This document shows, in pieces, positions 2,609 through 61,690 of a stretch of DNA of 64,000 bases. The DNA comes from a virus. Below the pieces are notes generated by a model. That model was given only the letters and a program-made list of their open reading frames with translations. It was not told the DNA's origin and did not search any database. The stretch lies in the IMG/VR virus record IMGVR_UViG_3300045988_167691; one strand, given 5' to 3'. Made by a program: the position numbers and the translations under genes. Position 1 is the first letter of the stretch. The number at the start of each line of letters is the position of its first letter.

Positions 2609-5134
2609 TTAAATGCTTTCCATCTTTTGTTCGTCAGACTTTTTCTTCCTTGCCGTCTTTTTCGCTTCCTTCCTTTCAGATATTTGGTTGTACATCTCCA
2701 TTGTCCGTCCCCTGTGATAGAACCTGCGCTTGTCATAATTGGTGGCAATCGTTATCACTTCTTGACTTTCTTTGTAGTCACGCAATTTGTCCACATAAAT
2801 ACGTGCCGTGCCGTTGGACTTTTCCTCTATTGTCATATTTAACGTGAACACAAAGGAAAAAGGTTTTACAAGTGTCTTGTCTCCTTCCGTATAGGAACGG
2901 TCTATTACTTTGTCAGGATTGTTCCATACTTCAAAAGGCACATCACTTGTTTGTGTTGCTGTGATAATAGGAGCTTCAATCTCGTCGGCAAGGTTCTTTA
3001 GAAGCTGCGCACAAGTCTGTAGCTTTTCTTTCTTATGATCGGGATCACTGTCTATCTTTTTGGAAATGCCGGTCTTTACCAAATCCAATGAATCCAAAAC
3101 TACCAACCCAGGAAAACGCCCGTGTGTATTGAAATAGTCGTAGCATAGCTGCCTTACATCGCTCATAGAAGCCTGTCCGAACTTCTTGAAACCGTACACC
3201 TCTATATCTGAACCGGCTTCTTTAATTTCTTCAATCGCCTTTTCGATCTTTTTCTTATCGTTGGGATCAATGTTGCCTGACTTGATATTGGAATAGGACT
3301 GGTTTGACCAAAGCTGATCATATATCTGCATACAGGCTTTAACGCCACCTTCCAATTGAATATGAAGAACCGGGACACCTCTAAGGGCAGCAGAATAGCC
3401 GTGCCATTTTAATACAGTCGTGTTGTGAGTAACGATAAAATCATTTGTAAGAAAAAGTCCTTCTTTTCCTGACACTTTTATGCACTGCATTTCTTTTATG
3501 CCAATATATTCAACGGACACAATTCTTCTTTCAACAAAATTCTTTTTCTTAGGATTTATCTCTCTTTCGTGTTTCCTTGAAAGATGAAATAAATCTAATC
3601 CTTTAGGAGGGGTGATTCTCAATCTATATCTGTATTTACAAATAACCCTTTCTCCTTTTTTGTTTACATAAGAAGCTCTTTTTGGTTCTGATATTTTACA
3701 CAAACATCCTAATGACCTTGCAATAAAAGTAGCGTCTTCTATTAATTGTTTAGAAGATAGAGAAAGTTCTATTTGTCCTGTTTTTTCAACATACCCGTCT
3801 GTATCTAAAAGCCCTCTAAGAACCTCTAATCGAACATTCTTATTGTTGAAAATATAATCTTTTGGAATAAACTTTTCGTGAGAAAGTTTCCCAAAAAGTC
3901 CGTATTTTTTTAAGTAATAATGAAAATTATGTTCACTTTCCCCTTTATTAATCCTATACGCATACCTTGCTACATATTTAAGGTATATCTGTTCTGGGAA
4001 CTTCAATTTTTCCATAATTTCATTGTCTGGCAACGTTACAGTTAAATTACCAGCTTTATCAGAAAAACTTCCATCGCCTAATAAAACGCCTAACGTATAA
4101 GGATCAATAAAAACTTCTTTTTCTCCTAAATCAACGCCTTCCACCAATGGTATAGAAAAACGAGGACGCGGATAAGAACCGTATCTTACAATATTGTTTT
4201 TAGTAAGATATTTTTGTCCGTTATGGTGTCCGCCAAATTTAATTCCTTTCTCCATCATTTCCGACAAAGGCATAGTTTCATAACCTTTTGAGTTGTGATA
4301 ATTATCCCATATCGTCCAAAGATGATCTTTGCTACAATCAACAAAACTTCCATCTGCAAAAGTTACTCGATACGCTTTCTTTCTTCCTTGAGGATATACG
4401 CCAACTATTGTTTGAGTACCGCCTTTTCTATCACAAATAATATCCCCTACCTTAGCATCTTTCATCAAAATATAACCAGTAGGAGTGAGAATTTTGCTGT
4501 CCAAAGTCAACGCTTTACCCGTACCACTGCGAGCAATCCAAAGCGTTGTGTCCCCTATTTCCATGCCACCGAAAGATACATCGTCCAACCTGTCGATTCC
4601 AAAAGGAATTTTTACTGGCTTTTCCGTTATCGTAGCAGCTTCCATGCGTCTTTCAATCATACGTTGCTGGAAACCCCCGAAAACAGACTGAAAACCCCCT
4701 GATTTGGAACGAAAAGACATCTCCACAATCCTTTGCGATTCTTCCGCGTTCACACGGATAGCTTCTTCCTTCTTTCCTTCTTCGTAAAGGTCATGTACCC
4801 TTTTGGAAAGAAGTTCGAACTCCGTCTCTTTCACAAACGATTGAAGTTGGTCTATTGCTATTTCTCTGTCTATCAGATTGGCTTTCTTTATTTCCTTTGC
4901 AGCATCCAACACAAAGTCATTATCAGAAAATTTTTGACAGATAGCACCAAGCGCGGGAAGCTTCCCCTTTTCTCTATATTGATCGACAGCTTCTCTTAGT
5001 ATGAATTTGTATCCAGACCATTCTTTAGGGATCAATTCATATTTCAGATGCTCCGATGCTATGCACATTATGACTTCATCCGAAAACATCAATTTAAATA
5101 TTTCGGACATAAAGCCAGGATTCAATTTATTCAC
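2609..5134 (-). CDS. DnaB-like replicative helicase, interrupted by an intein
   Basis: The 841-aa ORF has a Walker A motif (ARSGTGK|TT) split by a 364-aa insert and a Walker B-like LVVLDSLD. It is adjacent to the primase. The spliced size would be 477 aa. Confidence 0.8.
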   Translation of the reverse strand: MNKLNPGFMSEIFKLMFSDEVIMCIASEHLKYELIPKEWSGYKFILREAVDQYREKGKLPALGAICQKFSDNDFVLDAAKEIKKANLIDREIAIDQLQSFVKETEFELLSKRVHDLYEEGKKEEAIRVNAEESQRIVEMSFRSKSGGFQSVFGGFQQRMIERRMEAATITEKPVKIPFGIDRLDDVSFGGMEIGDTTLWIARSGTGKALTLDSKILTPTGYILMKDAKVGDIICDRKGGTQTIVGVYPQGRKKAYRVTFADGSFVDCSKDHLWTIWDNYHNSKGYETMPLSEMMEKGIKFGGHHNGQKYLTKNNIVRYGSYPRPRFSIPLVEGVDLGEKEVFIDPYTLGVLLGDGSFSDKAGNLTVTLPDNEIMEKLKFPEQIYLKYVARYAYRINKGESEHNFHYYLKKYGLFGKLSHEKFIPKDYIFNNKNVRLEVLRGLLDTDGYVEKTGQIELSLSSKQLIEDATFIARSLGCLCKISEPKRASYVNKKGERVICKYRYRLRITPPKGLDLFHLSRKHEREINPKKKNFVERRIVSVEYIGIKEMQCIKVSGKEGLFLTNDFIVTHNTTVLKWHGYSAALRGVPVLHIQLEGGVKACMQIYDQLWSNQSYSNIKSGNIDPNDKKKIEKAIEEIKEAGSDIEVYGFKKFGQASMSDVRQLCYDYFNTHGRFPGLVVLDSLDLVKTGISKKIDSDPDHKKEKLQTCAQLLKNLADEIEAPIITATQTSDVPFEVWNNPDKVIDRSYTEGDKTLVKPFSFVFTLNMTIEEKSNGTARIYVDKLRDYKESQEVITIATNYDKRRFYHRGRTMEMYNQISERKEAKKTARKKKSDEQKMESI
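3422..4513 (-). mobile_element. intein with LAGLIDADG homing endonuclease in the helicase P-loop (aa 208-571), class-3-like
   Basis: The insert starts with ALTLDSKILT directly after GTGK and ends with FIVTHN|TT. It has two LAGLIDADG motifs (LGVLLGDGSF, LRGLLDTDGYV). Block B reads SKDHLW, block F reads MQCIKV and block G reads VTHN. Boundary codons were checked in the DNA: gcg at 4513..4511 and aac at 3424..3422. Confidence 0.8.
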
Positions 5135-5145
5135 GATACCAAATT

Positions 5146-7245
5146 TTAAACCAGATTAATGCTAAAACCACTGCTTTCACCTTCCTCACGTAAGGTATTT
5201 ATTGCAAACCAGCTTGAGAGGCATAGATCGTCATGTCCTGAACTTGCTTCCAGTTTTCCTTTATCGCTTCTAAAAGTGATAGAAGAAAATTCACTAAACA
5301 TCAATTCCACCTTTTCCCTTGTCTCGCCCTCCTTATAAGGCGTTCTGATTTGTCCTCTTTCAAACATAGCAGACAAAGACGGAAGTCCGGTGTACAAGTC
5401 CTTCTTGTTTCCCTCCGTAGTGGTAAATTGTTCGATATTGGTAAGTCCTCTTTCTCTTGCAAGTGCTGACAATATCCCTTGGAATCCGTTAGCCTCGCAC
5501 ACGATCTTGTCAGGCTTATACAGACGATTGAAAAGAACAATCTTGTCCACCTGCTCATTGTGAGACATACCTTTTGCCCTGAAATAATTCACAAGATGGT
5601 AATTACCAGAAAAGTCAACTCCCCAAACGGAATAGACGGTGTAGTCAGCACCAATATTACCGGAAACAGCAAAGTCGCATCCCACTACCACCCTTTGAAG
5701 TTCGAACGGATAAAACTCTATGCTGTCCGCAAAGGAAACCTTATCCATGCCGGTAGTTGCCCTTCTAAGATATTCATATGGGAAAATAGTTGAGTTGTCC
5801 GAAATAGGAATCACAAGGTACTCTCGTGCAAACACAATAGAACCAAGTTCTGTCCTTTTCCTTTTTATATCTTCAAACATATACCTGTCAGGAGCAAGAG
5901 GTCGTCCGTCCGGGAATATGATAGGATATTCAAACAGATAAAAACGCTTATCTCCCTTAATGACATTGTACAATTCGTTAGGAGCAGTAGAATAAGGCGT
6001 ACCTGACACAATCAGATATCCGTAAGGCTCAACAATAGGAGTAATAGTCCCTCTAAATGTTTCCTTTAGCTTTTCTCTTTGCTCATCACTGTAAAGAGAA
6101 CTTTCATCTGGCATATCATCTATGATTGCTGCTCCAACGTGCAAACCACGAATAAAACCATCCTTACCACGAACATGAAGAATCGCACCATTTTCACCTT
6201 CTATTGCCGTTTCTCCAAGTTTAGCCTTGCCGTTCGGATCAAGTTTTTCCTTCAATATATCATTGGTGGATATTTCCTCTATAATCTTGTTCACATGCAC
6301 TTTTGCAAGTGTCATTGTATTTGTGATCATAGCGGTTTCTTTCCGGTTCTTGTTGTCTATCGTATCCCCTCCATACAACATAGGACGTGTATAGGAGTAT
6401 AACCTCCATAAAGGGAACGCATAGCACCACTCGAAGCTGTTGTGCATTACTGTGCCGTCAGCGAGCAAAAACTTATGATCTCCGTCACAAGCAAAACCGT
6501 AATACTCACCTTCATCCAGTAAGGTTATAAAGATTTCCGTTTTCTTGAATTTCCCATCTCTTGAAACTCTGTAACCTTCATATTTAGTGCCTCTCCTTTG
6601 GTTCATTTCGGCGATTTCAACAGGAATGTAAGTACCGTCAGCAAGACAAAGGATGTGTCCTTCGCTTACTATATAGCTATCTCCGCCTTTCTGTCTTACT
6701 TCGTACATATAGGTTTCTCCGTGATGCAGTTCCAAGACATTGCGACATTTCAAGTCTTGTCCCATCACCTTGTCACCTACTCTTATATCCTGGACTTTTT
6801 TTAACGAACCATCTGCCATAACTATCAAAGTATCAGGAGAAACGCACTTTCCACTACTTCGCGAACACAAATAACTACTCCAAGGAAATAGCTGCGTAAG
6901 ATTCCCCCATTCCAAGTTTCGCCATCCCATATTGAAATTAGAAAGGACTGTCGCCTTGAAATAATTAAAAGACAGAATCCTTAGATTTTCATCCATTGAA
7001 GCAAACAGATTGTCCACATACCCCAGCTTTTCCGTGTCAAGCGAACGTCCAAAATTCATGGCATACTCGGTCTGATTGATTATAGTGTCTAACATTTTAT
7101 CCAAATCCTTTCTGCTGCCACCAGAAAACAAGGATCGCACAGTAGTGGAAGGAAGTCGGTCTATAATATCGTCCACCGTTGCAAACAACCTTTTTGACTG
7201 TAGCTCGGTAAGTATTCCTCCTTTTGAATTATATATGACTGCCAT
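5146..7245 (-). CDS. terL: terminase large subunit, interrupted by a mini-intein
   Basis: The 699-aa ORF has a Walker A motif (SRSSGK|S) split by an insert and a Walker B motif (AAIIDDMPDES). It also has RNase-H-like nuclease aspartates (GCDFAVSG..ADYTV, GHDDLCLS). The spliced size would be 563 aa. Confidence 0.85.
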   Translation of the reverse strand: MAVIYNSKGGILTELQSKRLFATVDDIIDRLPSTTVRSLFSGGSRKDLDKMLDTIINQTEYAMNFGRSLDTEKLGYVDNLFASMDENLRILSFNYFKATVLSNFNMGWRNLEWGNLTQLFPWSSYLCSRSSGKCVSPDTLIVMADGSLKKVQDIRVGDKVMGQDLKCRNVLELHHGETYMYEVRQKGGDSYIVSEGHILCLADGTYIPVEIAEMNQRRGTKYEGYRVSRDGKFKKTEIFITLLDEGEYYGFACDGDHKFLLADGTVMHNSFEWCYAFPLWRLYSYTRPMLYGGDTIDNKNRKETAMITNTMTLAKVHVNKIIEEISTNDILKEKLDPNGKAKLGETAIEGENGAILHVRGKDGFIRGLHVGAAIIDDMPDESSLYSDEQREKLKETFRGTITPIVEPYGYLIVSGTPYSTAPNELYNVIKGDKRFYLFEYPIIFPDGRPLAPDRYMFEDIKRKRTELGSIVFAREYLVIPISDNSTIFPYEYLRRATTGMDKVSFADSIEFYPFELQRVVVGCDFAVSGNIGADYTVYSVWGVDFSGNYHLVNYFRAKGMSHNEQVDKIVLFNRLYKPDKIVCEANGFQGILSALARERGLTNIEQFTTTEGNKKDLYTGLPSLSAMFERGQIRTPYKEGETREKVELMFSEFSSITFRSDKGKLEASSGHDDLCLSSWFAINTLREEGESSGFSINLV
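6439..6846 (-). mobile_element. mini-intein (136 aa, no endonuclease domain) in the TerL P-loop (aa 134-269)
   Basis: The insert begins CVSPDTLIVMADGS directly after SSGK, has block B VSEGHIL, and ends TVMHN|S. Boundary codons were checked: tgc at 6846..6844 and aac at 6441..6439. Confidence 0.8.
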
Positions 7246-7901: not shown

Positions 7902-9234
7902 CTCTACATCAGGTAACTATATATTAGTTTATACTAACACATATTAGTTAATAAATTTCTTAACTGGGTTATACTCAAACCCTGTATAGGGTGGCATTAC
8001 TGCATCCCCTTTTACTTTTCTCATGATGTTATAACTTCCGTTGACATCAGCATTAAGTAAGATCCCATCTTTTGTTTTAAAAAGTCCTCTTTTTACTCTT
8101 TTACCAACGTAAGTATCATGATGTTCCACAGATTCTAAATCAAAAGAACTGCATTTTGACGTATGAGATTCGTTTACTTCAACAAATCTTAGCCCTTGTC
8201 TTTCTGATTTATACCTTAACATTGATATGAACATATCGAAAGGAATTGAAACAAAATTCTGATTGTTTCTTTTCCCAAGATTGGATTCTTGCTTCCATCC
8301 GTCATTATGTCCGACTATCAATGTTGTTATATTATCTTCCAAACAAGTATTGATTATTTCTTTACTTGCCTTGTGAAGATAATCCTTTGCTTTGTTGTTT
8401 CTCTTTCTTGTAAGAGACATTAACCGTCTTGAATTTTCTTTTCCATTTACTTTTTTTAATTGTTGTTGAATTTTCGATCTTTTCTTGTTGTAATACTGAT
8501 TGATGGATTTTAATTTCCTTCCATCAATCAAAACAGGTTTATTGTTTGTATTAGTTACAATAGAAGCTAAATTGTTTACACCTAAATCAATAGACATGAC
8601 CCTATTGTTATCGGGAAGCTGTTCTTTTACAGAAGATTCATAAACAACTTCTATAGAATAACAATCTGCTTTAGGAATAAACCGAACTTGTTTTACAGAA
8701 CCTTCTTTGCAATTCGTTTTCAAAGGTGACAGCCCTTCTTTCTTTGGAAAGAAAATGAAGTTTCCTTTGTGTTTAAACTGAGCATAAGAATAAGAAAATA
8801 CATTTCTACCTTTTGTTTTATGTTTATATCTCGGAAACTTAGGACAACCGGTAAACTTTTTGTTATCCCGTTTCCAAGACTTGATAGCAGAAAAATAAGA
8901 TTTTAGGTTCTTGTCTAAAGCCATAAGAACTTGTTGAGAAGAATTTGCACTCATTGCTCTATAGTCTATATTATCCTGTTTTCTAAACATACTATCAAGA
9001 TCAGTATATCTTATCCACTTTCCCGTACTAAGAAACTCTTTCTTTATTGTATATAAAGCAGCATTATACAAGTTCTTAGACAAGAAACAAATTCGATCTA
9101 AATCTTTGTATCTCTTATCATTTACAGAAATAATATGTTGTTCTACCAAATACATAGTGCAAATTTAAATAGAATATTTGAAATTTCCTATTTAAAATCT
9201 ACAACTTTAAATATTTCTGTAAACTGGTATATAG
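7902..9234 (-). mobile_element. solo-tnpB IS200/IS605-type (IS1341-like) element, exact ends not determined
   Basis: The tnpB ORF plus its 42-bp and 79-bp AT-rich flanks lie between two unrelated phage genes. No Y1 TnpA is present. The downstream flank contains a small hairpin (TTAGT-TTAT-ACTAA) and a direct repeat (ATATTAGTT). Confidence 0.5.
7944..9155 (-). CDS. tnpB: TnpB (OrfB) RNA-guided nuclease family protein
   Basis: The 403-aa ORF carries the RuvC triad: D in MSIDLGVNN, E in VNESHTSK and D in LNADVNGSYNI. It has the lysine-rich bridge KKRSKIQQQLKK...RKRNNKAKDYLHK. The zinc-finger region is degenerate (one Cys plus HH). Confidence 0.9.
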   Translation of the reverse strand: MYLVEQHIISVNDKRYKDLDRICFLSKNLYNAALYTIKKEFLSTGKWIRYTDLDSMFRKQDNIDYRAMSANSSQQVLMALDKNLKSYFSAIKSWKRDNKKFTGCPKFPRYKHKTKGRNVFSYSYAQFKHKGNFIFFPKKEGLSPLKTNCKEGSVKQVRFIPKADCYSIEVVYESSVKEQLPDNNRVMSIDLGVNNLASIVTNTNNKPVLIDGRKLKSINQYYNKKRSKIQQQLKKVNGKENSRRLMSLTRKRNNKAKDYLHKASKEIINTCLEDNITTLIVGHNDGWKQESNLGKRNNQNFVSIPFDMFISMLRYKSERQGLRFVEVNESHTSKCSSFDLESVEHHDTYVGKRVKRGLFKTKDGILLNADVNGSYNIMRKVKGDAVMPPYTGFEYNPVKKFIN

Positions 9235-9525
9235 TTACATCATTATTTGTTTCCCGTAAACTCTTGCTATTTCAAACTCTGCCATACAACCTTTTGATGT
9301 TGCCCAATCAAAAACAAAATAAACGGCATCACACTCTAAAAGAGCTTTAATGCTCTCTCCCATGTAATAGGAATAGGGTTTATCCGGTTCACTGCAATCG
9401 TCAAAAGGTGTTATCACTTCATATCCCTTTTCTTCGATCCATTTCTTGACTTGATTTGCATATTTCTTTGTTTCTTCCAAATCATGCCCTGTTATAGGCA
9501 AGCTAACATACACTTTTGTTTTCAT
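9235..9525 (-). CDS. DUF4406 / nucleoside 2-deoxyribosyltransferase-like protein
   Basis: The 96-aa ORF shows KVYVSLPITGH ... CDAVYFVFDWATSKGCMAEFEIA, the pattern I associate with the DUF4406/NDT-like fold. Confidence 0.6.
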   Translation of the reverse strand: MKTKVYVSLPITGHDLEETKKYANQVKKWIEEKGYEVITPFDDCSEPDKPYSYYMGESIKALLECDAVYFVFDWATSKGCMAEFEIARVYGKQIMM

Positions 9526-12093: not shown

Positions 12094-12125
12094 CGAAATT
12101 AGATTATAAAATCATTGCATACAAA
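12094..12125 (-). promoter_or_regulatory. Bacteroides-type promoter candidate (-33 TTTG, 20-nt spacer, -7 TAATTTCG)
   Basis: On the minus strand TTTG (12125..12122) and TAATTTCG (12101..12094) lie just upstream of the ATG at 12087. There is one mismatch to the TAnnTTTG consensus. Confidence 0.3.
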
Positions 12126-12142
12126 AGTTGTATATTTTAAGT

Positions 12143-12172
12143 GATAAAAGAAGGGGAAGTTTTTGTTCCCCT
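12143..12172 (-). terminator. intrinsic terminator candidate after gene 12203..12769
   Basis: Hairpin AGGGGAA (12152..12158) / TTCCCCT (12166..12172) is followed on the minus strand by TCTTTTAT. Confidence 0.55.
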
Positions 12173-12202
12173 GTCTCGCTGACAAAACTACAACTTTTGT
12201 AA

Positions 12203-12769
12203 CTATTCCCAAACCAAATTAATGTTAAAAATCTCATCGGTCTCTTTTTCAACCTTCTTATAGCGGTTCTGCGTGTTCATATCTCTCTCTGCCACAAGAT
12301 CATAGTCATTTTTTATAATTTTCTTATCAAGCGACCGACAGAACCACAAACAGATTTCATCCCCAGCTTCCATATCACCAAGCGATACCGGTTCTTCCTC
12401 TTTTGCTTCATAAAATTGAATCCAATAAGGTTTTTCGTTCATGGAAGATGTGCGCGAAGTAACCGGATTTTCTTCTTCATCCTTTCCCATCCCTATAGCT
12501 CCTACCGTGATTGTCCCGTAGGGGTTATCCGTTACAGAAGAAAACCATAATTCGACATTTTTAAGCGTTTCTGTGCCCTCATTTTTCAAAACAAGAGCAA
12601 CGTATTGGCTATGAGGATTTGAAGCCAAATTAAGGCTTATTTCATCAAATAAATTGCCAAATACATCATTAGGCACAAGAGTGGAAGATTTATATCCACC
12701 CAACGAATCTGAAACTTTGGACTGCGGACTGTTATATCCCGAACTGACCGTATAATAAAACCGTAACAT
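12203..12769 (-). CDS. hypothetical protein (last gene of the tail-fibre operon)
   Basis: The 188-aa ORF is assigned by position only. Confidence 0.5.
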   Translation of the reverse strand: MLRFYYTVSSGYNSPQSKVSDSLGGYKSSTLVPNDVFGNLFDEISLNLASNPHSQYVALVLKNEGTETLKNVELWFSSVTDNPYGTITVGAIGMGKDEEENPVTSRTSSMNEKPYWIQFYEAKEEEPVSLGDMEAGDEICLWFCRSLDKKIIKNDYDLVAERDMNTQNRYKKVEKETDEIFNINLVWE

Positions 12770-21667: not shown

Positions 21668-21700
21668 CAAAAATAACCTTTCTTTTTGAGAAAATACAAA
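21668..21700 (-). promoter_or_regulatory. Bacteroides-type promoter candidate (-33 TTTG, 21-nt spacer, -7 TATTTTTG)
   Basis: On the minus strand TTTG (21700..21697) and TATTTTTG (21675..21668) lie upstream of the ATG at 21621. The site sits just outside the left inverted repeat. Confidence 0.4.
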
Positions 21701-22504
21701 ACCTACCTTCTTTTCTTTCGCCAATCCAATTACCAATTAGATACATCATACAAATACGTTTCCCTTTTGATAGTTGGAAGGGGAGGTTACGGTAAAGATA
21801 CCGACAATGCTCCAAATGCGCCTGAATGGTATGGAGGTTGCATGGGTGGAGACAGTGCAATTGTTGCTTATCAGAAGAATTTTATAATAAGTCAATCTAT
21901 AGACGGAATGTGGAGATATGAAACTATAGATTTCAGAAAATCAATATCAGGAAACATGGGTCTTTACGTAAAATTTGTGTGTTATGGCTCTACATATGAA
22001 GTGTTTTTGGGCGATCAAAAAAATGGACAAGAACATAGAGATACATATTGGTTTTTCAAAGTGAACGGGCAAGGAAATCTTTCGCCGTTCATTTATGGTA
22101 GAAACGAAGGAGGTCTCGCAACACCTGAATTGGTTGCAGGAGCAGGAGGAAGTAGCAGTAGCGGACAGTATAGTACATCTATTTCTGGTATGAAATACGG
22201 TGGGGTAGGTGGAGATGGAAGATATGGCAATCAAGGTCCAGAGTATAATTCAGGACTAAAAGCTGATTCTACTATCCCTGTTCAATCTATTTTTGGAGGT
22301 ACAGGGTACGGAGCAGGGAGTTATTTCGCTTCAACCGACAACTGCAAAGCCGGCGGCGCGGGAGGTTATGGAGATGGAAGTATGAACGGCAGAGCTGGAT
22401 ATGGTGCTGGCGGAACAGCTTTCAAAATATCTTCATCTTCAACTGATTTTTATAATGAAGGCAACGGGATTGTCTGCTTGTATTATCATAACAACCCTCT
22501 GTAA
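21686..22504 (+). CDS. alternative glycine-rich tail-fibre tip cassette (paralog of the C-terminus of the 2297-aa fibre), probably silent in this orientation
   Basis: This is the only protein-like plus-strand ORF. Residues 13-34 (QSNYQLDTSYKYVSLLIVGRGG) are encoded by a sequence identical to aa 2017-2038 of the fibre. It shares IPVQSIFGGT, GGAGGYG-type G-rich blocks and the terminal C(L/I)YYHN.P(L/I) with the fibre tip. I found no plus-strand promoter upstream. Confidence 0.7.
   Translation: MRKYKTYLLFFRQSNYQLDTSYKYVSLLIVGRGGYGKDTDNAPNAPEWYGGCMGGDSAIVAYQKNFIISQSIDGMWRYETIDFRKSISGNMGLYVKFVCYGSTYEVFLGDQKNGQEHRDTYWFFKVNGQGNLSPFIYGRNEGGLATPELVAGAGGSSSSGQYSTSISGMKYGGVGGDGRYGNQGPEYNSGLKADSTIPVQSIFGGTGYGAGSYFASTDNCKAGGAGGYGDGSMNGRAGYGAGGTAFKISSSSTDFYNEGNGIVCLYYHNNPL
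21721..21787. repeat. inverted repeat, left copy (67 bp, perfect)
   Basis: The sequence ccaatccaattaccaattagatacatcatacaaatacgtttcccttttgatagttggaaggggaggt is the exact reverse complement of 23340..23406. I checked this base by base. Confidence 0.95.
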
Positions 22505-51474: not shown

Positions 51475-51672
51475 CTACTTTGATTTTTGACTAACCATTT
51501 TCTTCGTCAAGTCCATTAACATATTGTTTATCTGTGTCGAGAAAATGACCTGCGCCATCCCTTCATAACCTTCTTGTACTTTAGGATAACGCATAGGGTC
51601 AACATGATGATGTATATTTGACACCAACGGCATTTTCTCGACTTTTATGTTCTTTACATATCGAACGTTCAC
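51475..51672 (-). CDS. hypothetical small protein
   Basis: The 65-aa ORF lies between the portal and MuF-like genes and overlaps the portal stop by 4 nt. Confidence 0.4.
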   Translation of the reverse strand: MNVRYVKNIKVEKMPLVSNIHHHVDPMRYPKVQEGYEGMAQVIFSTQINNMLMDLTKKMVSQKSK

Positions 51673-54600
51673 GATCCCCCCCAGTTCTTCTCAATGTAAG
51701 ACATAGCAGCATCCATGATAGGATTCGAACTGAAAGATTTTTGTGTATCTTCCTTTTCTTCCGAAGCTATCTGACGATCCACTTCTTCATTCATCGCTTC
51801 TCCACCATACATAGCTTGCTGTAATTGCATTTGCTTTTGAAGCTGGTAAGATTGATTCAGGATAGTATCCGTTTCGGGATTGAATTTACGTCCAGAGTAT
51901 TTTTCAAAAATATCCTCTAAGCAAACCATACCGTTTTGAATCTTCTTAGCATCAATCTCAACCTGTCTGCCTTCATCCTCTGCGTCTACACCTGTAAAGA
52001 CAAATTCAAAATCTTCGTCCAATTCTGATACAAGATAGTAATTGATCACCTCTTGTAAGAACACAAGAATAGGTTTTAATCCTTTGTCTTTTGAATGTTG
52101 CAAACGCTCCTTTTGTCCAGCTTGTCCAAAGATATTTGTCTGATCTTTAAATTGGAAACCAAGTTCTGATGGATCAATACGATAGACGGCACAAGTCATA
52201 ACAAGTAGGAATTTCACCCACTCGCTAAACTCCATGTCACGGTTGGTATTCTTACTTAAATCTAACCACTGGAGGTCTAACCCGTTGATAATGGGCGTTC
52301 TGTGGCTATTATGGGTAAGAATACCGTTGGCAATAAATTGATGCTCGTTGTCAAAAACTTCTACATCATACATTTCGACTTCTTCTTCCGTTTCCTCTAA
52401 AAATTTGATTTCCGAAAAATAAAAATCATTATATTCGTAAGGAAGATCAAAATTCATTTTTTTAGCAACTTCAAGAAGTCCAGCTTGCGTTATCCCATCA
52501 TGACCAATTCCTATACCAATTAATTTTCTCGAAAGATTTTTGTCTATTTGGTCTTCTTCTTTGAAAACATTTCTTCTAAAAGACTCTACCCTCATCTCAT
52601 TAGCAATCCTTTGCATCATTTTGGGGTGCAGAGAAAACGGTTCTTTGTAATCCAACAAAGACGATCTTTGTTTGTAAGGCTGAATAAAAGATATCCTTTC
52701 AAAGAAATCTTTTCTATTTTTAATCAAAAGAAGAAATCCGCCTTCATGCGGTTCTTTATTTAGTTTTGTCTTTCTTCTTACGTTACCTTCCGAATAAGTG
52801 CATTGAATCCCTTCAGCTAACAATAATTCTCTAAATTGATGTCTTAATCTATTGTTAACTATTGTTATTTGAGGGGAAGGTGAACTTTTAATAGTACATC
52901 CATCAGCAGAAAACATACCTCTTATAAAGGCACATCTGCATTCAGAAGAAATCCTAAACAATACTGGAGCTATTGTTTTGCCTTTACAACTTGGAGTAAA
53001 ACCCAACTCCATCAAAAATTCAAAAAACTGTTTGTCGGAACACAAGATAGAAAGTCTTTCTAAAAGAGTTGATTTAAACCCATACCTTCTTTTTGTATCT
53101 TCAGCCTTTTCTTCTGTTATCTTAGTTCTTTTTATATAATTATTTATTCCATATTTGTTTAAAATTGAATGAATGTGTTCGCTTATATAAACTTCTTTAA
53201 TACTATGAAAATAAAAAGAGATTCTCTTTCTACTTGGATTTCCATTATCAATATGTCCGTCACCAATCAGCCACCCAAGCATCTCAAAGAAATCGGCTTC
53301 AAGTTCTTTTCCTTTATAATATAAAGTCAAAGTTTGAGGTAATGATTTTTTGTTAGATAAAACATAATCTCCTAATTTAATATCTTTTCTCTCTTTCCAT
53401 TCTATAACCCCATTATCAGACACAACCTTAAATCTATGCTCTGGAGAAGATTCAATATACATCCCATTAGCAACACCCAATTTGCATATTTTCTTCTTCT
53501 GCGTTTTCGTAACTCGAGCATCGACAAAAGATTTACCTGTCCATATTTTTACATCCCTATACTCCAATCCATTCAATACGCCTTCCAAAGACACAAGTCC
53601 TTCGTTTTCTGTTACAATTTTAGTGCTTCCAACCAGACAATTACGAGTCCCCACCATAGTCTGTTGCCAAGCCTGTCTGAACTCATCCAAAGAAGATTGA
53701 GATATGTTCGGATTCTTAACATTTATGATTCCTTTTGGTTGAGAAGATTTGCTAAAATAATTTCCGTTATATTCAAACCCCCACAAAATCCACATCATAA
53801 CACTGGACAATGTTTCCAGTTCTGACGTGCCATACCCATTTTTATAGATGTTGGTGGATTTATTGCGGATACCGATGCCCAATTCCCAGGGATAAAAAAT
53901 AACACTTTCATGCGTAACAGGATTTTCCATGATCTGTCCTTGCCATGCCATACAATATTTTGGCAAATAACCTTTGAACCGGTACTGTTCAAATTCTTCC
54001 CGGAACTTTGGATCAATGCTATCAAGAAAACGTATCAAAGAAGCATCCACAGCCCGGTAACGAGCCAAATTCCAAGACCTGTCTCTTACTATTTCAAAAG
54101 CAAGCTGATCAAGAGTAAGGCTATCAAACACAACCTTTCTCCCAAAGTCTTGGAATGTATCAAATGATTCCCATTTGTCATGGAAACCGCCTTCTTCCAA
54201 GAATTTACGAATATAGGCTATCTTTATCTGATCTTCTCTTGAATGTTCTGTACTTTGTTTCTCAAAAGGATTTCTTTTTCTTCGGATAGTGTAACCTTCT
54301 TTCTGTTCATCTGTTGAAAAATGCAAGAAATTCTGTACCTGTTCAACACGGGTATTCACCACAGCCCGGACAACAAAAATGTCCCCCATCCTTCGAAGTA
54401 CTTCAAAAGGAAGCGACCCGTAAAACATAGGGTCTTTATATCCTCTTCCCGTATCACTTGCTTCATCTGGATTAAAGAACACAGCCTTTACATTGTCCTG
54501 TCTTTGATTGACATTATCCAGGTACAAATTAGCTTTTAAAAGATTTTCCAAATCATCAGAACGAGACATCTGCTGTAATTTGGATTGAAGCAAAGTAGGA

Positions 54601-54704
54601 AGAGTTTTCTGCAATCCTACAATATCTTCCAAAGAAAGGCTGGCCAGACCCTTTAACAGGTCTGACTTTCCTTGATTTTTATTTTTGTCTCTTTTCCTAC
54701 TCAC
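51669..54704 (-). CDS. portal protein, interrupted by an intein
   Basis: The 1011-aa ORF would be 567 aa after removal of the insert. It is adjacent to the MuF-like gene and has an acidic Q-rich C-terminus. Confidence 0.7.
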   Translation of the reverse strand: MSRKRDKNKNQGKSDLLKGLASLSLEDIVGLQKTLPTLLQSKLQQMSRSDDLENLLKANLYLDNVNQRQDNVKAVFFNPDEASDTGRGYKDPMFYGSLPFEVLRRMGDIFVVRAVVNTRVEQVQNFLHFSTDEQKEGYTIRRKRNPFEKQSTEHSREDQIKIAYIRKFLEEGGFHDKWESFDTFQDFGRKVVFDSLTLDQLAFEIVRDRSWNLARYRAVDASLIRFLDSIDPKFREEFEQYRFKGYLPKYCMAWQGQIMENPVTHESVIFYPWELGIGIRNKSTNIYKNGYGTSELETLSSVMMWILWGFEYNGNYFSKSSQPKGIINVKNPNISQSSLDEFRQAWQQTMVGTRNCLVGSTKIVTENEGLVSLEGVLNGLEYRDVKIWTGKSFVDARVTKTQKKKICKLGVANGMYIESSPEHRFKVVSDNGVIEWKERKDIKLGDYVLSNKKSLPQTLTLYYKGKELEADFFEMLGWLIGDGHIDNGNPSRKRISFYFHSIKEVYISEHIHSILNKYGINNYIKRTKITEEKAEDTKRRYGFKSTLLERLSILCSDKQFFEFLMELGFTPSCKGKTIAPVLFRISSECRCAFIRGMFSADGCTIKSSPSPQITIVNNRLRHQFRELLLAEGIQCTYSEGNVRRKTKLNKEPHEGGFLLLIKNRKDFFERISFIQPYKQRSSLLDYKEPFSLHPKMMQRIANEMRVESFRRNVFKEEDQIDKNLSRKLIGIGIGHDGITQAGLLEVAKKMNFDLPYEYNDFYFSEIKFLEETEEEVEMYDVEVFDNEHQFIANGILTHNSHRTPIINGLDLQWLDLSKNTNRDMEFSEWVKFLLVMTCAVYRIDPSELGFQFKDQTNIFGQAGQKERLQHSKDKGLKPILVFLQEVINYYLVSELDEDFEFVFTGVDAEDEGRQVEIDAKKIQNGMVCLEDIFEKYSGRKFNPETDTILNQSYQLQKQMQLQQAMYGGEAMNEEVDRQIASEEKEDTQKSFSSNPIMDAAMSYIEKNWGGS
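52308..53639 (-). mobile_element. intein with LAGLIDADG homing endonuclease in the portal gene (aa 356-799)
   Basis: The insert begins CLVGSTKIVT after GTRN, has block B SPEHRF and LAGLIDADG motifs LGWLIGDGHI and IRGMFSADGC, and ends GILTHN|S. Boundary codons were checked: tgt at 53639..53637 and aat at 52310..52308. Confidence 0.8.
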
Positions 54705-57679: not shown

Positions 57680-58111
57680 TTAGTCTTCTTTCTTGTCGGA
57701 TTTTTCGGAATCTTCTTTTGCTTTCTTCTTATATTCGGTATCTTTCTTGTAGGGCATACCCACAATACCTTTTCTTCTGTTTTCGGGGGTATCTTTGTAA
57801 AAACCGATCTTGTTCTTTACGGGAAGTCCGGTTGCCCCGGCTTTTTCAATTGTTTCTGGGTCTGCGTCCTTCCATTCAATCTGTGGGTCACGATAATATA
57901 CAACAGATTTGTTGAAGTTTTCGTCAACCACAACAACACGGTTTAGGGACACGAAGTCAATAGCTCCATGTTCCTGTTCAATAGGGTCAATACTTTTAAC
58001 TACATCAGAAGCAAAGTCTCTGACTTGCTCCAATGAATAAACCTCCCAGTTATTCTTTTCTGCAAGGTCTTTAAATTCATTTATAGGATATTCTCTAATC
58101 ATTTTGTGCAC
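57680..58111 (-). CDS. hypothetical protein
   Basis: The 143-aa ORF has a basic, K-rich C-terminal tail. Confidence 0.5.
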   Translation of the reverse strand: MHKMIREYPINEFKDLAEKNNWEVYSLEQVRDFASDVVKSIDPIEQEHGAIDFVSLNRVVVVDENFNKSVVYYRDPQIEWKDADPETIEKAGATGLPVKNKIGFYKDTPENRRKGIVGMPYKKDTEYKKKAKEDSEKSDKKED

Positions 58112-58181
58112 AATTTAATTAGGTGAAATTCAACACACAAATGTAACTAAAATTTCCTATATCGAACAATTTTCAAAAATA

Positions 58182-58625
58182 AAAAACTCTTAGCAAGCAC
58201 TTTCCTTGTTGGGGTGGCAACCGTACTAATACTTGCTAAGAGTGCCGTTCTCGCTCCACCCAGCGATCGAAGGTAACGGCTTAGCCTTTTAAGGTAGGAA
58301 GAAATTAAACTGAATTTTTTGATTGTTCCTATGCGCGAAGAGCAATGTTACTTCAAAAGAAGCCTTTCTCACGGGAAACCAATTATCCCACGACATCCTA
58401 TAGGAAGCCTTAATGCCAGTGTTGCAGGACTTATCGTATCGGTTTATACTTCTATAGGGGAGCCGGCATCCTCAAACTCCGTTGGTCGCTCCAATCATTC
58501 AATCTAACACTTCCAAAGTGGGGATTTAATGTTGTTCCCCTCAACATCACATAGCCTTCAAGAAAAGAAGGGAAGCTACCGCGAATCACCTCCAATCTTC
58601 AACTTTTTAGCTATCTCATCTCGAC
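58182..58625 (-). ncRNA. candidate structured non-coding RNA (~440 nt), family unknown
   Basis: A 558-bp gap contains no credible ORF and looks clearly more GC-rich than its flanks. A minus-strand -7 box (TATATTTG) lies at 58635..58628. The 3' end is an 11-bp stem (58187..58197 / 58232..58242) followed by T6. Internally there are many helices, for example GCCGTT/AACGGC enclosing CGCT/AGCG, and GGGTGG/CCACCC. Confidence 0.45.
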
Positions 58626-58669
58626 TGCAAATATACAACTATTGTATTCAACAATTGAAATTTTTGCAG

Positions 58670-58900
58670 TTAAAAGTTGTTAATGTCAATGCCACATGCA
58701 GCAGCAATCAATAGAGACACCTCCTGTTCCTCTATTGACATCTGCCGGATAGTGGTAAAATATCTTTCTGAATCATGTTGATAGCTGTCAAGAACAGCTT
58801 CTTTTTGATCATTTGTAACTCCGTAAAAAGACAGTACATTTTTCTTTTCTTCTTCCGTTAGATTCTTTCTGTCTTTGATGTATAATGTTTTCTTTTTCAT
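58670..58900 (-). CDS. hypothetical small protein
   Basis: 76-aa ORF. Confidence 0.45.
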   Translation of the reverse strand: MKKKTLYIKDRKNLTEEEKKNVLSFYGVTNDQKEAVLDSYQHDSERYFTTIRQMSIEEQEVSLLIAAACGIDINNF

Positions 58901-58946: not shown

Positions 58947-59411
58947 CTATGTTCTTTTTGTTGCATCCTTTTTAGTAGAAGAACAGAAATATAAACTATC
59001 GCTAAATAGAAGTTCATCCAACATATCTTCGTTGATATCATTTTCATCTGAAAAATCGTCCTCATCTTCTTCATCCATTTCTTTACAAATTCTTTCATAA
59101 GGTACACGCCCACAAAATCCACGTTTTTGTTTATTTTGCTTTTCACAAACAAAATATTCATCTATGTCAATTCCTGCCGCGCATAAATCCATCAAATATT
59201 CTTCTATTTCCTTAATAGAACCTCCCCCTACAATCATCCAATAAAATTCATTAGGATCATTTATAAAATTTTCCTTCAAGGCTGGAAAATAAAAAGAACC
59301 ACCATGTTTTCCGACACCTCTTTTGGACACTGTCTTTTCAAGAAATTCAAGTTTATACTTTGCAGCTTCCTTAATGCTTTCAAAAGTGTGAATAGTTCCG
59401 TCAAACTTCAA
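58947..59411 (-). CDS. hypothetical protein with a strongly acidic C-terminal region
   Basis: The 154-aa ORF contains MDEEDEDDFSDENDINEDMLDE. Confidence 0.5.
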   Translation of the reverse strand: MKFDGTIHTFESIKEAAKYKLEFLEKTVSKRGVGKHGGSFYFPALKENFINDPNEFYWMIVGGGSIKEIEEYLMDLCAAGIDIDEYFVCEKQNKQKRGFCGRVPYERICKEMDEEDEDDFSDENDINEDMLDELLFSDSLYFCSSTKKDATKRT

Positions 59412-60701: not shown

Positions 60702-60735
60702 AGAAATATTATTTTGAAATTAAACTTTCGAAATA

Positions 60736-60748
60736 GAACATTATGTTC
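60736..60748. promoter_or_regulatory. palindromic operator-like site GAACAT-T-ATGTTC
   Basis: This perfect 6+1+6 palindrome lies between the promoter candidate (-7 box 60767..60760) and the ATG at 60701. Confidence 0.35.
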
Positions 60749-60759
60749 CGTATGACGCA

Positions 60760-60790
60760 CAAAAATAACAAATAAAATTAAAGACACAAA
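60760..60790 (-). promoter_or_regulatory. Bacteroides-type promoter candidate (-33 TTTG, 19-nt spacer, -7 TATTTTTG)
   Basis: On the minus strand TATTTTTG lies at 60767..60760. The TTTG is supplied by the end of the upstream terminator's T-run. Confidence 0.4.
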
Positions 60791-60816
60791 AAAAAGCACG
60801 TTAAAAAACGTGCTTT
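60786..60816 (-). terminator. strong intrinsic terminator
   Basis: A 10-bp perfect stem, AAAGCACGTT (60793..60802) / AACGTGCTTT (60807..60816), has a 4-nt loop. It is followed on the minus strand by a T8 run. Confidence 0.8.
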
Positions 60817-61690
60817 AATGTTTTGGAGATGCGGTACACCAAAACGATAATATTTCTATGCACTGCAAAGATACAACAAAATTAGATAATTCCAAAAAAA
60901 ACGAGAAAAATTTTAGATCAAACTGAAAAATCGCCCGTTCGCACGCCTCGCTTCGCTCACGCGCGCCCGAAGGGTTTCCTCCCCACCCTCCATCCCTTTA
61001 CTTTGCTTTCAATTTTCCTTACGCGTGTACGCGTTCGCGTTTTTATTTCTTTTCTTTTTCTTAGTAGGAGTATCATCTATCATATTCCTTTCGTTCTTTC
61101 TCTATACTCTCTTTTCTTAATAGAGATCTCTTCCTACTAATGGGAATGGTGATGGACTTTCCACCAAAGGAAACCAATGAGAGGCAATTCCTATTGCCGG
61201 AGTTGGTTTCCGGGTGTAAATTATTTGAAAACTTTATGTTTTCTATATAATATATGCAATTACTACAGAATGTTGGGAAAAATGGAAAATGGGAATTTTT
61301 CAGTACCCAAATGATGTTTTTTGAATGAAATTTACAAATTCAAAATAACAGAATGAAGGGTCTTGTTTCCCCAACATTGAGCCCCTTTGGGAGGTCGAAA
61401 GGGGTAGGGGGATTGGGTGGGTCACCGGAACGTAGTGACGGAATAGAAACAATGATTCCATTAAAAGAAAGTATATGTATTAGGTAGGTATTATGAAAGC
61501 AAAAAGAATATATGGCGATAAAACGAAAAATGGTTAGCAAATCAAATAGACCGCTACCCATCCATCGAATAGTAATAAGAATTTGAAGAAAATGCTAAGG
61601 TTTTTGATTTAGGATACTATGTGTATTGTTTTTGTAGGTGAGGACAATTTCTCAACCATCCTCACCTTGCTGTTCACATGACAAACGATT

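Follow-up and report, generated by a model that had tools for sequence, protein, structure and literature searches.

We analysed a 64,000-nucleotide stretch of viral DNA (IMG/VR record IMGVR_UViG_3300045988_167691; the whole stretch is called the window below) and conclude that a gap between two of its minus-strand genes is a real gene for a structured, non-coding RNA (ncRNA) of about 440 nt. We consider it probable that the gene is a stand-alone unit, that it represents an undescribed family confined to one clade of gut myophages, and that its product is a trans-acting accessory RNA whose gene serves as a landing site for TnpB elements. A preliminary description of the window, made from its letters, had proposed here a promoter-to-terminator unit, free of open reading frames (ORFs), for a structured phage ncRNA of about 440 nt and of unknown family. 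Rfam, covariation and coding checks were run; none of them refuted this proposal, and together they support it.

The gap (58112-58669) is 558 bp long, as previously described, and lies between the minus-strand genes 57680..58111 (143 amino acids) and 58670..58900 (76 amino acids). Its GC content is 43.4%, against a mean of 37.7% (s.d. 3.4%) for equal-size segments across the 64-kb stretch, which places it in the top 4.6%; the spacers flanking the RNA gene on either side have 21-27% GC, in agreement with the remark that the gap is richer in GC than its flanks. The predicted transcript occupies 58181..58622 of the minus strand, both ends being placed from the promoter and the terminator. All elements of the RNA described below are on this strand.

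The fold is backed by covariation

We aligned 39 sequences of the locus (alignment A2; 37 distinct rows), in which long invariant blocks lie between modules with about three haplotypes each. Folding of the minus strand gave -137.6 kcal/mol with z = -2.37 (2 of 100 shuffles were as good), compared with z = -0.69 for the plus strand. RNAalifold predicted 95 pairs from the 39 sequences, 21 of them compensatory. We dropped the pairs reaching into the promoter and added a loop-loop helix, which gave a curated model of 94 pairs in 16 helices. In this model 99.5% of 3478 cells are paired among the 37 distinct relatives, and compensatory double changes occur at 22 pairs; controls in which the 3' partners were shifted by 1-3 columns had 1-4 such pairs. 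The model scored 0.240 for covariation, versus 0.03-0.06 in these slid controls, and none of 500 shuffles reached 0.240. G·U pairs account for 10.3% of paired cells (only 89.2% of cells pair if Watson-Crick pairs alone are allowed), indicating that the fold exists on the minus-strand transcript only. Conservation and covariation in relatives, which the preliminary description had proposed to check, are thus both strong.

The RNA is made up of a 5' hairpin domain, a junction that is closed by long-range helices and has invariant joining strands, and a pair of 3' hairpins with complementary loops. The best-supported elements are the terminator stem, the long-range P3/P4 (6 compensatory pairs), P10 and a 6-bp kissing interaction. 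The 5' domain, P5, P8 and P12 are almost invariant, so that the alignment neither supports nor contradicts those helices.

The 5' domain, P1 (58541..58624), forms a long, irregular hairpin that contains invariant G·G mismatches and is topped by the apical stem GGAGGUGAUU/GGUAGCUUCC; owing to its near-invariance, its backing consists mainly of one-sided (G·U) changes plus a single compensatory pair. It is followed by the hairpin P2 (58520..58540; GGGG...CCCC), the loop of which varies from 5 to 19 nt among haplotypes. In the core multi-helix junction (58334..58481), P3/P4 (58481-58467 with 58347-58334) enclose P5 (58465-58462/58394-58391), P6 (58458-58452/58403-58397), P7 (58389-58373) and P8 (58363-58350). 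P6 and P7 have one compensatory pair each, the invariant joining strand GUGAGAAAGG continues into P8 to form GUGAGAAAGGCUUCUUUUGAAGUAACA, and a 26-mer of the core is identical across 53 viral contigs. The preliminary description had noted a self-complementary TCCTATAGGA. This sequence is present at 58396-58405, but instead of folding on itself it serves as the 3' arm of a long hairpin, with CCUAUAG at 58458-58452 as the 5' arm.

Between the core and the 3' hairpins runs an indel-rich linker (58281..58333) without consensus pairing, found in three unalignable haplotypes with 12-13-nt indels and ending in an invariant AAAGGCU. The motif AGGCU, reported earlier as recurrent, occurs four times in the RNA, and three of the copies are invariant in relatives. 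The hairpin P9/P10 (58244..58280) contains the helix first written as GCCGTT/AACGGC around CGCT/AGCG, which we see as GCCG/CGGC (58280-58277/58247-58244) enclosing UCGCU/AGCGA; P10 has two compensatory pairs. Its 6-nt loop GGGUGG pairs with the CCACCC loop of the terminator hairpin at 58217..58212. This contact had been foreseen as pseudoknot-like, with GGGTGG at 58260..58255; the pairing stands and covaries, the position being 58261..58256. The loop-loop helix is paired in 100% of cells and has two compensatory pairs (G-C to U-A and U-A to C-G), GGGUGG/CCACCC being replaced by GUGCGG/CCGCAC in relatives.

Promoters and terminator of the RNA gene

As had been noted before, a -7 box of the Bacteroidetes TAnnTTTG type, TATATTTG, lies on the minus strand at 58628..58635 (columns 7-14 of the alignment). 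Seven of its eight positions are invariant in the 39 sequences and the fourth is A or G, giving TATRTTTG; from the Bacteroidetes consensus we take the box to be an active promoter element. The region upstream of it (58636..58662), whose sequence is kept in relatives, carries a -33-like TTG (AATTGTTG) and, between this and the -7 box, a near-palindrome, ATACAAtAGTTGTAT; the TRF program reports a 13-nt x2 repeat there. Elsewhere in the window the palindromic motif is found only at 12119-12138(+) and 12183-12202(-), that is, 3 matches in all versus 0.13 expected, and it is a probable operator.

At the other end, in the intrinsic terminator (58175..58243), a 7x7 internal loop separates a 15-bp stem from a 4-bp stem, which is capped by the loop CCACCC (58217-58212); UUUUUUAUUUUU follows the hairpin. 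The 11-bp terminal stem followed by T6 of the preliminary description (CTCTTAGCAAG, 58187-58197, with CTTGCTAAGAG, 58232-58242) is confirmed and proves longer, extending to 15 bp (58243-58229/58200-58186), with compensatory changes at 9 of the 15 pairs over three stem haplotypes. At -24.5 kcal/mol it is the strongest hairpin with a T-run on the minus strand of the window; a standard terminator scanner, which accepts loops of at most 8, did not report it.

Just 3' of the terminator is a second -7 box, TACATTTG (58138..58145), and TAC(A/T)TTTG followed by TGTGTTGAATT is kept there in divergent relatives. This box is likely to be an independent promoter for the genes that follow it, namely the 143-amino-acid gene, a holin, a BACON-domain protein, and the genes for portal, head and tail, which together cover about 45 kb of the minus strand. 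Upstream of the RNA gene lie small ORFans. The RNA gene therefore appears to stand at the boundary of early and late genes, yet as an independent unit.

The same layout would also suit a leader that acts in cis on the late operon. Late transcription would then start from the promoter at 58635, and the RNA with its terminator would form a checkpoint that is read through only once the RNA polymerase has been modified, by a factor or by the RNA itself. The order of elements on the minus strand fits (small gene, promoter with palindrome, RNA, strong terminator, 143-amino-acid gene, holin, structural genes), as do further clean terminators inside the downstream block at about 38658 and 22511. Against it, a conserved and complete promoter (58145-58138) comes after the terminator. 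By inspection, no upstream segment covaries with either terminator arm across the three terminator haplotypes, as the antiterminator of a riboswitch or attenuation leader should, and the one complementarity seen, GCUAAG/CUUAGC, is limited to the haplotype of the window. Moreover, a multi-domain fold of 440 nt is far above the size of known cis antiterminator RNAs, and genomes exist in which the core of the RNA is deleted and the terminator kept. We regard a leader function as possible but doubtful.

Two sites elsewhere in the window resemble these control elements. At 12110-12205, between the last gene of the tail module and the next block, a small hairpin, GGGGAAGTTTTTGTTCCCC, has divergent copies of the palindrome, ATACAAnAGTTGTAT, on its two sides; these copies probably share a regulatory class with the promoter of the RNA. 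At 60785-60872 on the minus strand there is a candidate small RNA of about 75 nt, in which the -7 box TATCTTTG is followed by CAGUG (compare TATATTTG followed by CAGUC in the large RNA). It folds into two hairpins, the second of which is a perfect terminator (AAAGCACGUUUUUUAACGUGCUUUUUUUU), with z = -4.9 (0 of 200 shuffles as good).

A TnpB element inserts into the RNA gene

In 15 of 95 loci (about 16%; 8 of 54 viral and 7 of 41 metagenome loci), tnpB lies inside the RNA locus and the 5' strands of P3-P5 are deleted, so that the core of the RNA cannot form. The split, about 1.3-1.5 kb in the eight viral contigs (BLAST), holds a gene for a 403-amino-acid TnpB (Pfam OrfB_IS605, 7.7e-24; Cas12f1-like_TNB, 1.6e-11), and the 3' domain of the RNA directly follows the tnpB stop codon. 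The window, in which the RNA gene is intact, has its own tnpB at 7944-9155, 50 kb from the RNA, coding for a protein 89.6% identical to the inserted TnpB.

We surveyed the best 80 of 316 viral tnpB loci. The element in them is about 1.3-1.4 kb long, with 22-bp inverted repeats (GGTAAyTATATAymAGTTTACA), its own promoter, and a right end 32-34 nt past the stop codon. The last ~110 nt of the tnpB ORF and the right end are nearly invariant, third codon positions included (55 distinct copies; ~7912-8060 on the minus strand of the window). This segment forms four hairpins, the terminal one of which covaries, and it is likely to be the element's own ωRNA (guide-RNA) scaffold.

Insertion follows a TAA + 8 bp rule. 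TAA is found at 30 of 33 distinct sites, and a duplication of at least 7 of the 8 bp at 14 of 33. In the RNA gene, the predicted DNA target TAA|ACCGATAC (58436..58446) falls in the apical part of P6. In L051/L026 (= L065/L074) the right end of the element, ...ATTACC, abuts ACCGATACGATAAGTCC, identical to the window from 58443 downward, and in the window ACCGATACGATAAGTCC is preceded by TATAA, which fits the rule. These junctions indicate that tnpB and RNA came to be adjacent in the 15 loci through insertion at TAA|ACCGATAC and later rearrangement. Since covarying long-range helices span the insertion point, the form without the ORF is the selected RNA.

We infer that the RNA gene is a landing or homing site for the TnpB element. 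The guide of an ωRNA made at a locus of the L051/L026 type would correspond to the intact RNA gene, a geometry suited to TnpB-driven homing; the homing step would follow the established mechanism of IS605-family TnpB. A TnpB element specialised for homing into the RNA gene is a possibility. As 15 of the 95 sampled genomes, on several haplotype backgrounds, lack an intact RNA, the RNA is probably not essential for propagation.

Could the RNA itself belong to TnpB? It might be a decayed insertion sequence that has lost its ORF, its 3' domain serving in trans as an ωRNA-like scaffold for the TnpB encoded at 7944-9155. The presence of a closely similar TnpB in the window and, in the 15 relatives, inside the locus and right before the 3' domain would suit such a role, and GUUACC in the RNA is identical to the terminal hexamer of the element. 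But no such RNA lies within 3 kb of tnpB at 72 of the best 80 loci, and the element has its own ωRNA-like 3' end, to which the 58-kb RNA has no similarity (blastn, word size 7). The RNA also has no variable 3' guide tail; it ends in the covarying 15-bp terminator and a U-run, and a promoter follows. Given in addition that the insertions obey the ordinary TAA + 8 bp rule and that covarying helices span the insertion point, it is very unlikely that the RNA is the ωRNA of TnpB.

The tnpB-only element of the window (7902-9240, minus strand), for which the guide would be the flank TGATGTAGAGATG..., contains no transposase. It occurs also in the relatives L055-L134 and altogether in at least 316 IMG/VR contigs, among them members of the ~100-kb clade and of a second group of phages of about 130-160 kb. 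IS200/IS605 ends are not known to have inverted repeats or to produce a duplication, whereas the element here has the repeats and frequently the duplication. The window copy is short of about 5 nt at its left junction, and this loss gives rise to the stop codon of the upstream gene (9235-9237).

Conservation, coding capacity and distribution

The RNA of the window shares 74% identity with that of L001-type genomes, compared with 48-63% for the four-fold sites of the flanking genes, and blocks of 15-27 nt are identical in all aligned sequences. The comparison with four-fold sites indicates that the RNA is under purifying selection.

An ORF-free, GC-richer island that attracts insertion of a mobile element might instead be a DNA-level element (an origin, a packaging site or a recombination hotspot) or a neutral spacer with incidental structure. 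The pairing is, however, strand-specific, as seen from its dependence on G·U; the promoter and the terminator bound the RNA on that same strand; conservation is well above that of four-fold sites; and there is no switch of GC skew at the RNA locus. We consider either form of this explanation highly improbable.

No conserved ORF was found in the gap in any frame, in keeping with the view that it holds no credible ORF and that its plus-strand ORFs are mere shadows. Neither of the latter is kept; their frame and stops vary among haplotypes, with truncation in L024-type sequences. The stop-free stretches, 35-69 codons long, are what a small-protein gene would need, but across the 39 sequences each of them shifts frame or is cut off between haplotypes, and the sole ATG-started ORF of the minus strand (58396..58289) reads ATG TCG TGA in most relatives, that is, ends after two codons. 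The indels relative to the GenBank relative MT835500 (74% identity) are of 1, 1, 1, 1, 1, 2, 4, 5 and 12 nt. As these are not in general multiples of three and the frames are broken between haplotypes, the gene is non-coding, and a small-protein gene is the least probable explanation of all.

A search with the invariant 26-mer recovered 53 IMG/VR contigs, almost all of 85-108 kb, with one copy each; searches with a 5'-domain pattern and with the 143-amino-acid neighbour each recovered the same set and one contig more, making 54 viral contigs. A two-block core pattern identified 41 genuine members in metagenome contigs from the human gut. Another three metagenome matches were rejected as chance, one lying inside a bacterial peptidase gene (L294) and two having no match to the hidden Markov model (L308 and L328). 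A scan of 185,579 bacterial and archaeal genomes gave no match. The RNA is present in a single copy per contig and at a fixed locus, and the 143-amino-acid neighbour is an ORFan with 144 homologues, at least 83% identical among the matches listed. Because all searches returned the same clade, the RNA family appears confined to one genus-level clade of phages, the members of which are human-gut phages of about 100-108 kb. The phage is a myovirus: it has a tail sheath and a baseplate, its portal is about 34% identical to that of SPO1-like phages, and it carries a BACON-domain protein and promoters of the Bacteroidetes type.

Upstream of the RNA, the proteins of 76 (58670-58900) and 154 amino acids (58947-59411) share a C-terminal motif, L..AA(C)GIDI(N/D)..F, which makes them probable paralogues. 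The 76-amino-acid protein is fast-evolving (48-96% identity); the RNA and the 143-amino-acid protein are conserved.

Tests against known RNA classes

The preliminary description had been unable to name a family for the RNA, and a scan of three haplotypes against Rfam 15 gave no known family either. There was no match at the gathering score in the whole 64 kb, and at E<=10 the three haplotypes gave only microRNA, small nucleolar RNA and plastid untranslated-region noise, at 9-24 bits against gathering scores of 43-100. GOLLD, ROOL, OLE, HEARO, raiA and the other Rfam 15 families were accordingly rejected, having no covariance-model match near the gathering score. ARAGORN detected no tRNA or tmRNA in the window.

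Other classes were set aside on their own features. A group I or II intron or an IStron is contradicted by the position of the RNA between complete genes, with its own promoter and terminator, and there was no match to Intron_gpI or group II models at E<=10. As regards a type III toxin-antitoxin system (ToxI-like), which would show tandem direct repeats of ~34-45 nt ahead of an endoribonuclease toxin gene, TRF found no repeat inside the RNA, and the downstream 143-amino-acid protein has no match in Pfam, PHROGs or PDB. We also considered the ncRNAs associated with reverse transcriptases (retron, DRT and UG27 types, the last known from phage; PMC9226505); no reverse transcriptase domain (Pfam, PHROGs) was found in genes up to 6 kb on either side. 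A template repeat of a diversity-generating retroelement was rejected, as the window contains no second copy of the region. Our literature search found no description of this RNA, nor of TnpB in these phages. By these comparisons the RNA is a new family within a known broad category, that of stand-alone structured phage RNAs.

Proposed function of the RNA

We propose that a discrete RNA is made from a regulated promoter with a palindromic operator, between the region of small ORFans and the 45-kb block of lysis and structural genes, and that it acts in trans as an accessory. It would most likely be a protein-binding scaffold or decoy, or would self-associate through the junction and the kissing loops. 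We favour action in trans because the unit is self-contained, the downstream genes have a separate promoter and no antiterminator covaries. In addition, it is the junction strands and loops, not the helices, that are most conserved, and natural disruptions are tolerated.

Several points weigh against this proposal. Its transcript ends and its action in trans are themselves read from the sequence, and a cis-acting leader, too, would be expected just ahead of the late block. The clade is narrow and its variation amounts to about three recombining haplotypes per module, so that independent events are far fewer than compensatory cells; both kissing-loop changes, for instance, co-occur in the same 11 sequences. 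The persistence of disrupted copies could reflect selfish drive by TnpB and not true dispensability. Searches of 10 neighbouring proteins in Pfam, PHROGs and PDB gave no family, no solved relative and no protein partner (an AF2 model of the 143-amino-acid neighbour, with a pLDDT of 40, was unusable and not used), and no antisense target was found in the window, where complementarity was limited to chance-level 11-14-mers.

A bolder version, which we think rather unlikely, is that a new class of large, functional phage RNAs begins with this one. Its core would be an invariant four-way junction that is catalytic or recognises a ligand or protein, its covarying 6-nt loops would act between molecules to give an RNA-only assembly like those of ROOL and GOLLD, and it would be made at the switch to late expression to manipulate the host or a competing element.

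Other features of the window

A second ORF-free gap of about 990 nt (60702-61690) is mosaic among relatives, with a conserved sub-block at ~60934-61123; one stretch of it is rich in GC, and the GC skew reverses locally. Two relatives (L027 and L025) have an insertion of about 1.3 kb in it, with a distant TnpB-like match (~22% identity to the TnpB of the window) between the split segments.

A perfect 67-bp inverted repeat (21721-21787/23340-23406) encloses 1552 bp at the 3' end of a tail-fibre-like gene of 2297 codons, together with an oppositely oriented ORF of 272 codons (21686-22504). The segment between the repeats looks like an invertible one that switches fibre tips. In the gene for the 609-amino-acid BACON-domain protein there is an exact 300-bp direct repeat (54856-55155/55483-55782; period 627 bp), which points to a recent internal duplication of a module of ~209 amino acids.

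The large terminase, the portal and a DnaB-like helicase (5146-7245, 51669-54704 and 2609-5134, respectively) all seem to carry inserted domains. In the portal this is an endonuclease-like segment (residues ~396-642) that is absent from MT835500, and in the terminase a Hint-like segment. These domains are likely inteins or homing elements, which would make the genome rich in selfish insertions.

Comparison with known systems

We know of few large structured phage RNAs; for the phages of human-gut Bacteroidales, which are abundant and uncultured, we know of none. With a covariation-backed model of 16 helices, a loop-loop contact and a defined promoter and terminator, the present RNA is ready for Rfam-style curation, and the natural 'knock-outs' made by tnpB offer a ready comparison for finding its role. 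At the same locus, an RNA-guided nuclease element seems to be spreading in a phage population by targeting an RNA gene that is conserved yet apparently non-essential.

Read-through leader layouts are known from lambda (PR'-6S RNA-tR', with Q) and from the put RNA of HK022. The present locus resembles them in its order: a promoter that includes a factor site, then a short transcript ending at a terminator, then lysis genes and a structural operon. It differs in the second conserved promoter past the terminator and in an RNA that is much larger and elaborately folded; neither an antiterminator alternative nor a Q-like protein was identified at the locus.

The likeness to a TnpB ωRNA is that the RNA lies beside tnpB in about 16% of relatives, 3' of the ORF there, and is structured with a pseudoknot-type contact. 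Unlike an ωRNA, it has no 3' guide, ends in a terminator, is unrelated to the 3' RNA of the element and keeps a fixed locus regardless of tnpB. The phi29 pRNA is likewise a structured RNA encoded by a phage, and the covarying complementary loops of the present RNA could, as in pRNA, act between molecules. However, the present RNA is 2.5x longer and has no Rfam match, and its phage has a conventional large terminase (ORF 5146-7245; PHROG matches).

Staphylococcus phage K (Herelleviridae) produces lnc001 and lnc002, abundant intergenic long ncRNAs with promoters of their own, one of which lies beside the lysis module (PMC9241854). Phage K too is a large myovirus, and the present phage has a portal of distant (~34%) identity to SPO1-like ones. 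Homology between the RNAs of the two phages is not expected. Those of phage K were identified by RNA-seq and have no covariation-backed structure, whereas the present RNA is known from its sequence-derived structure.

GOLLD and ROOL are large ornate RNAs, associated with phages and prophages, that form RNA-only homo-oligomers (PMC12286853). They are about 580-800 nt long, against ~440 nt for the present RNA, which has no match to their covariance models; the latter, moreover, lies beside lysis and structural genes and not in tRNA clusters, and in one phage genus only. It shares with GOLLD and ROOL that it is a large, multi-domain, phage-borne ncRNA with predicted independent transcription, and its complementary loops could mediate contacts between RNAs. 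The interest of the family would rise sharply if its core proved catalytic or if its loops mediated assembly.

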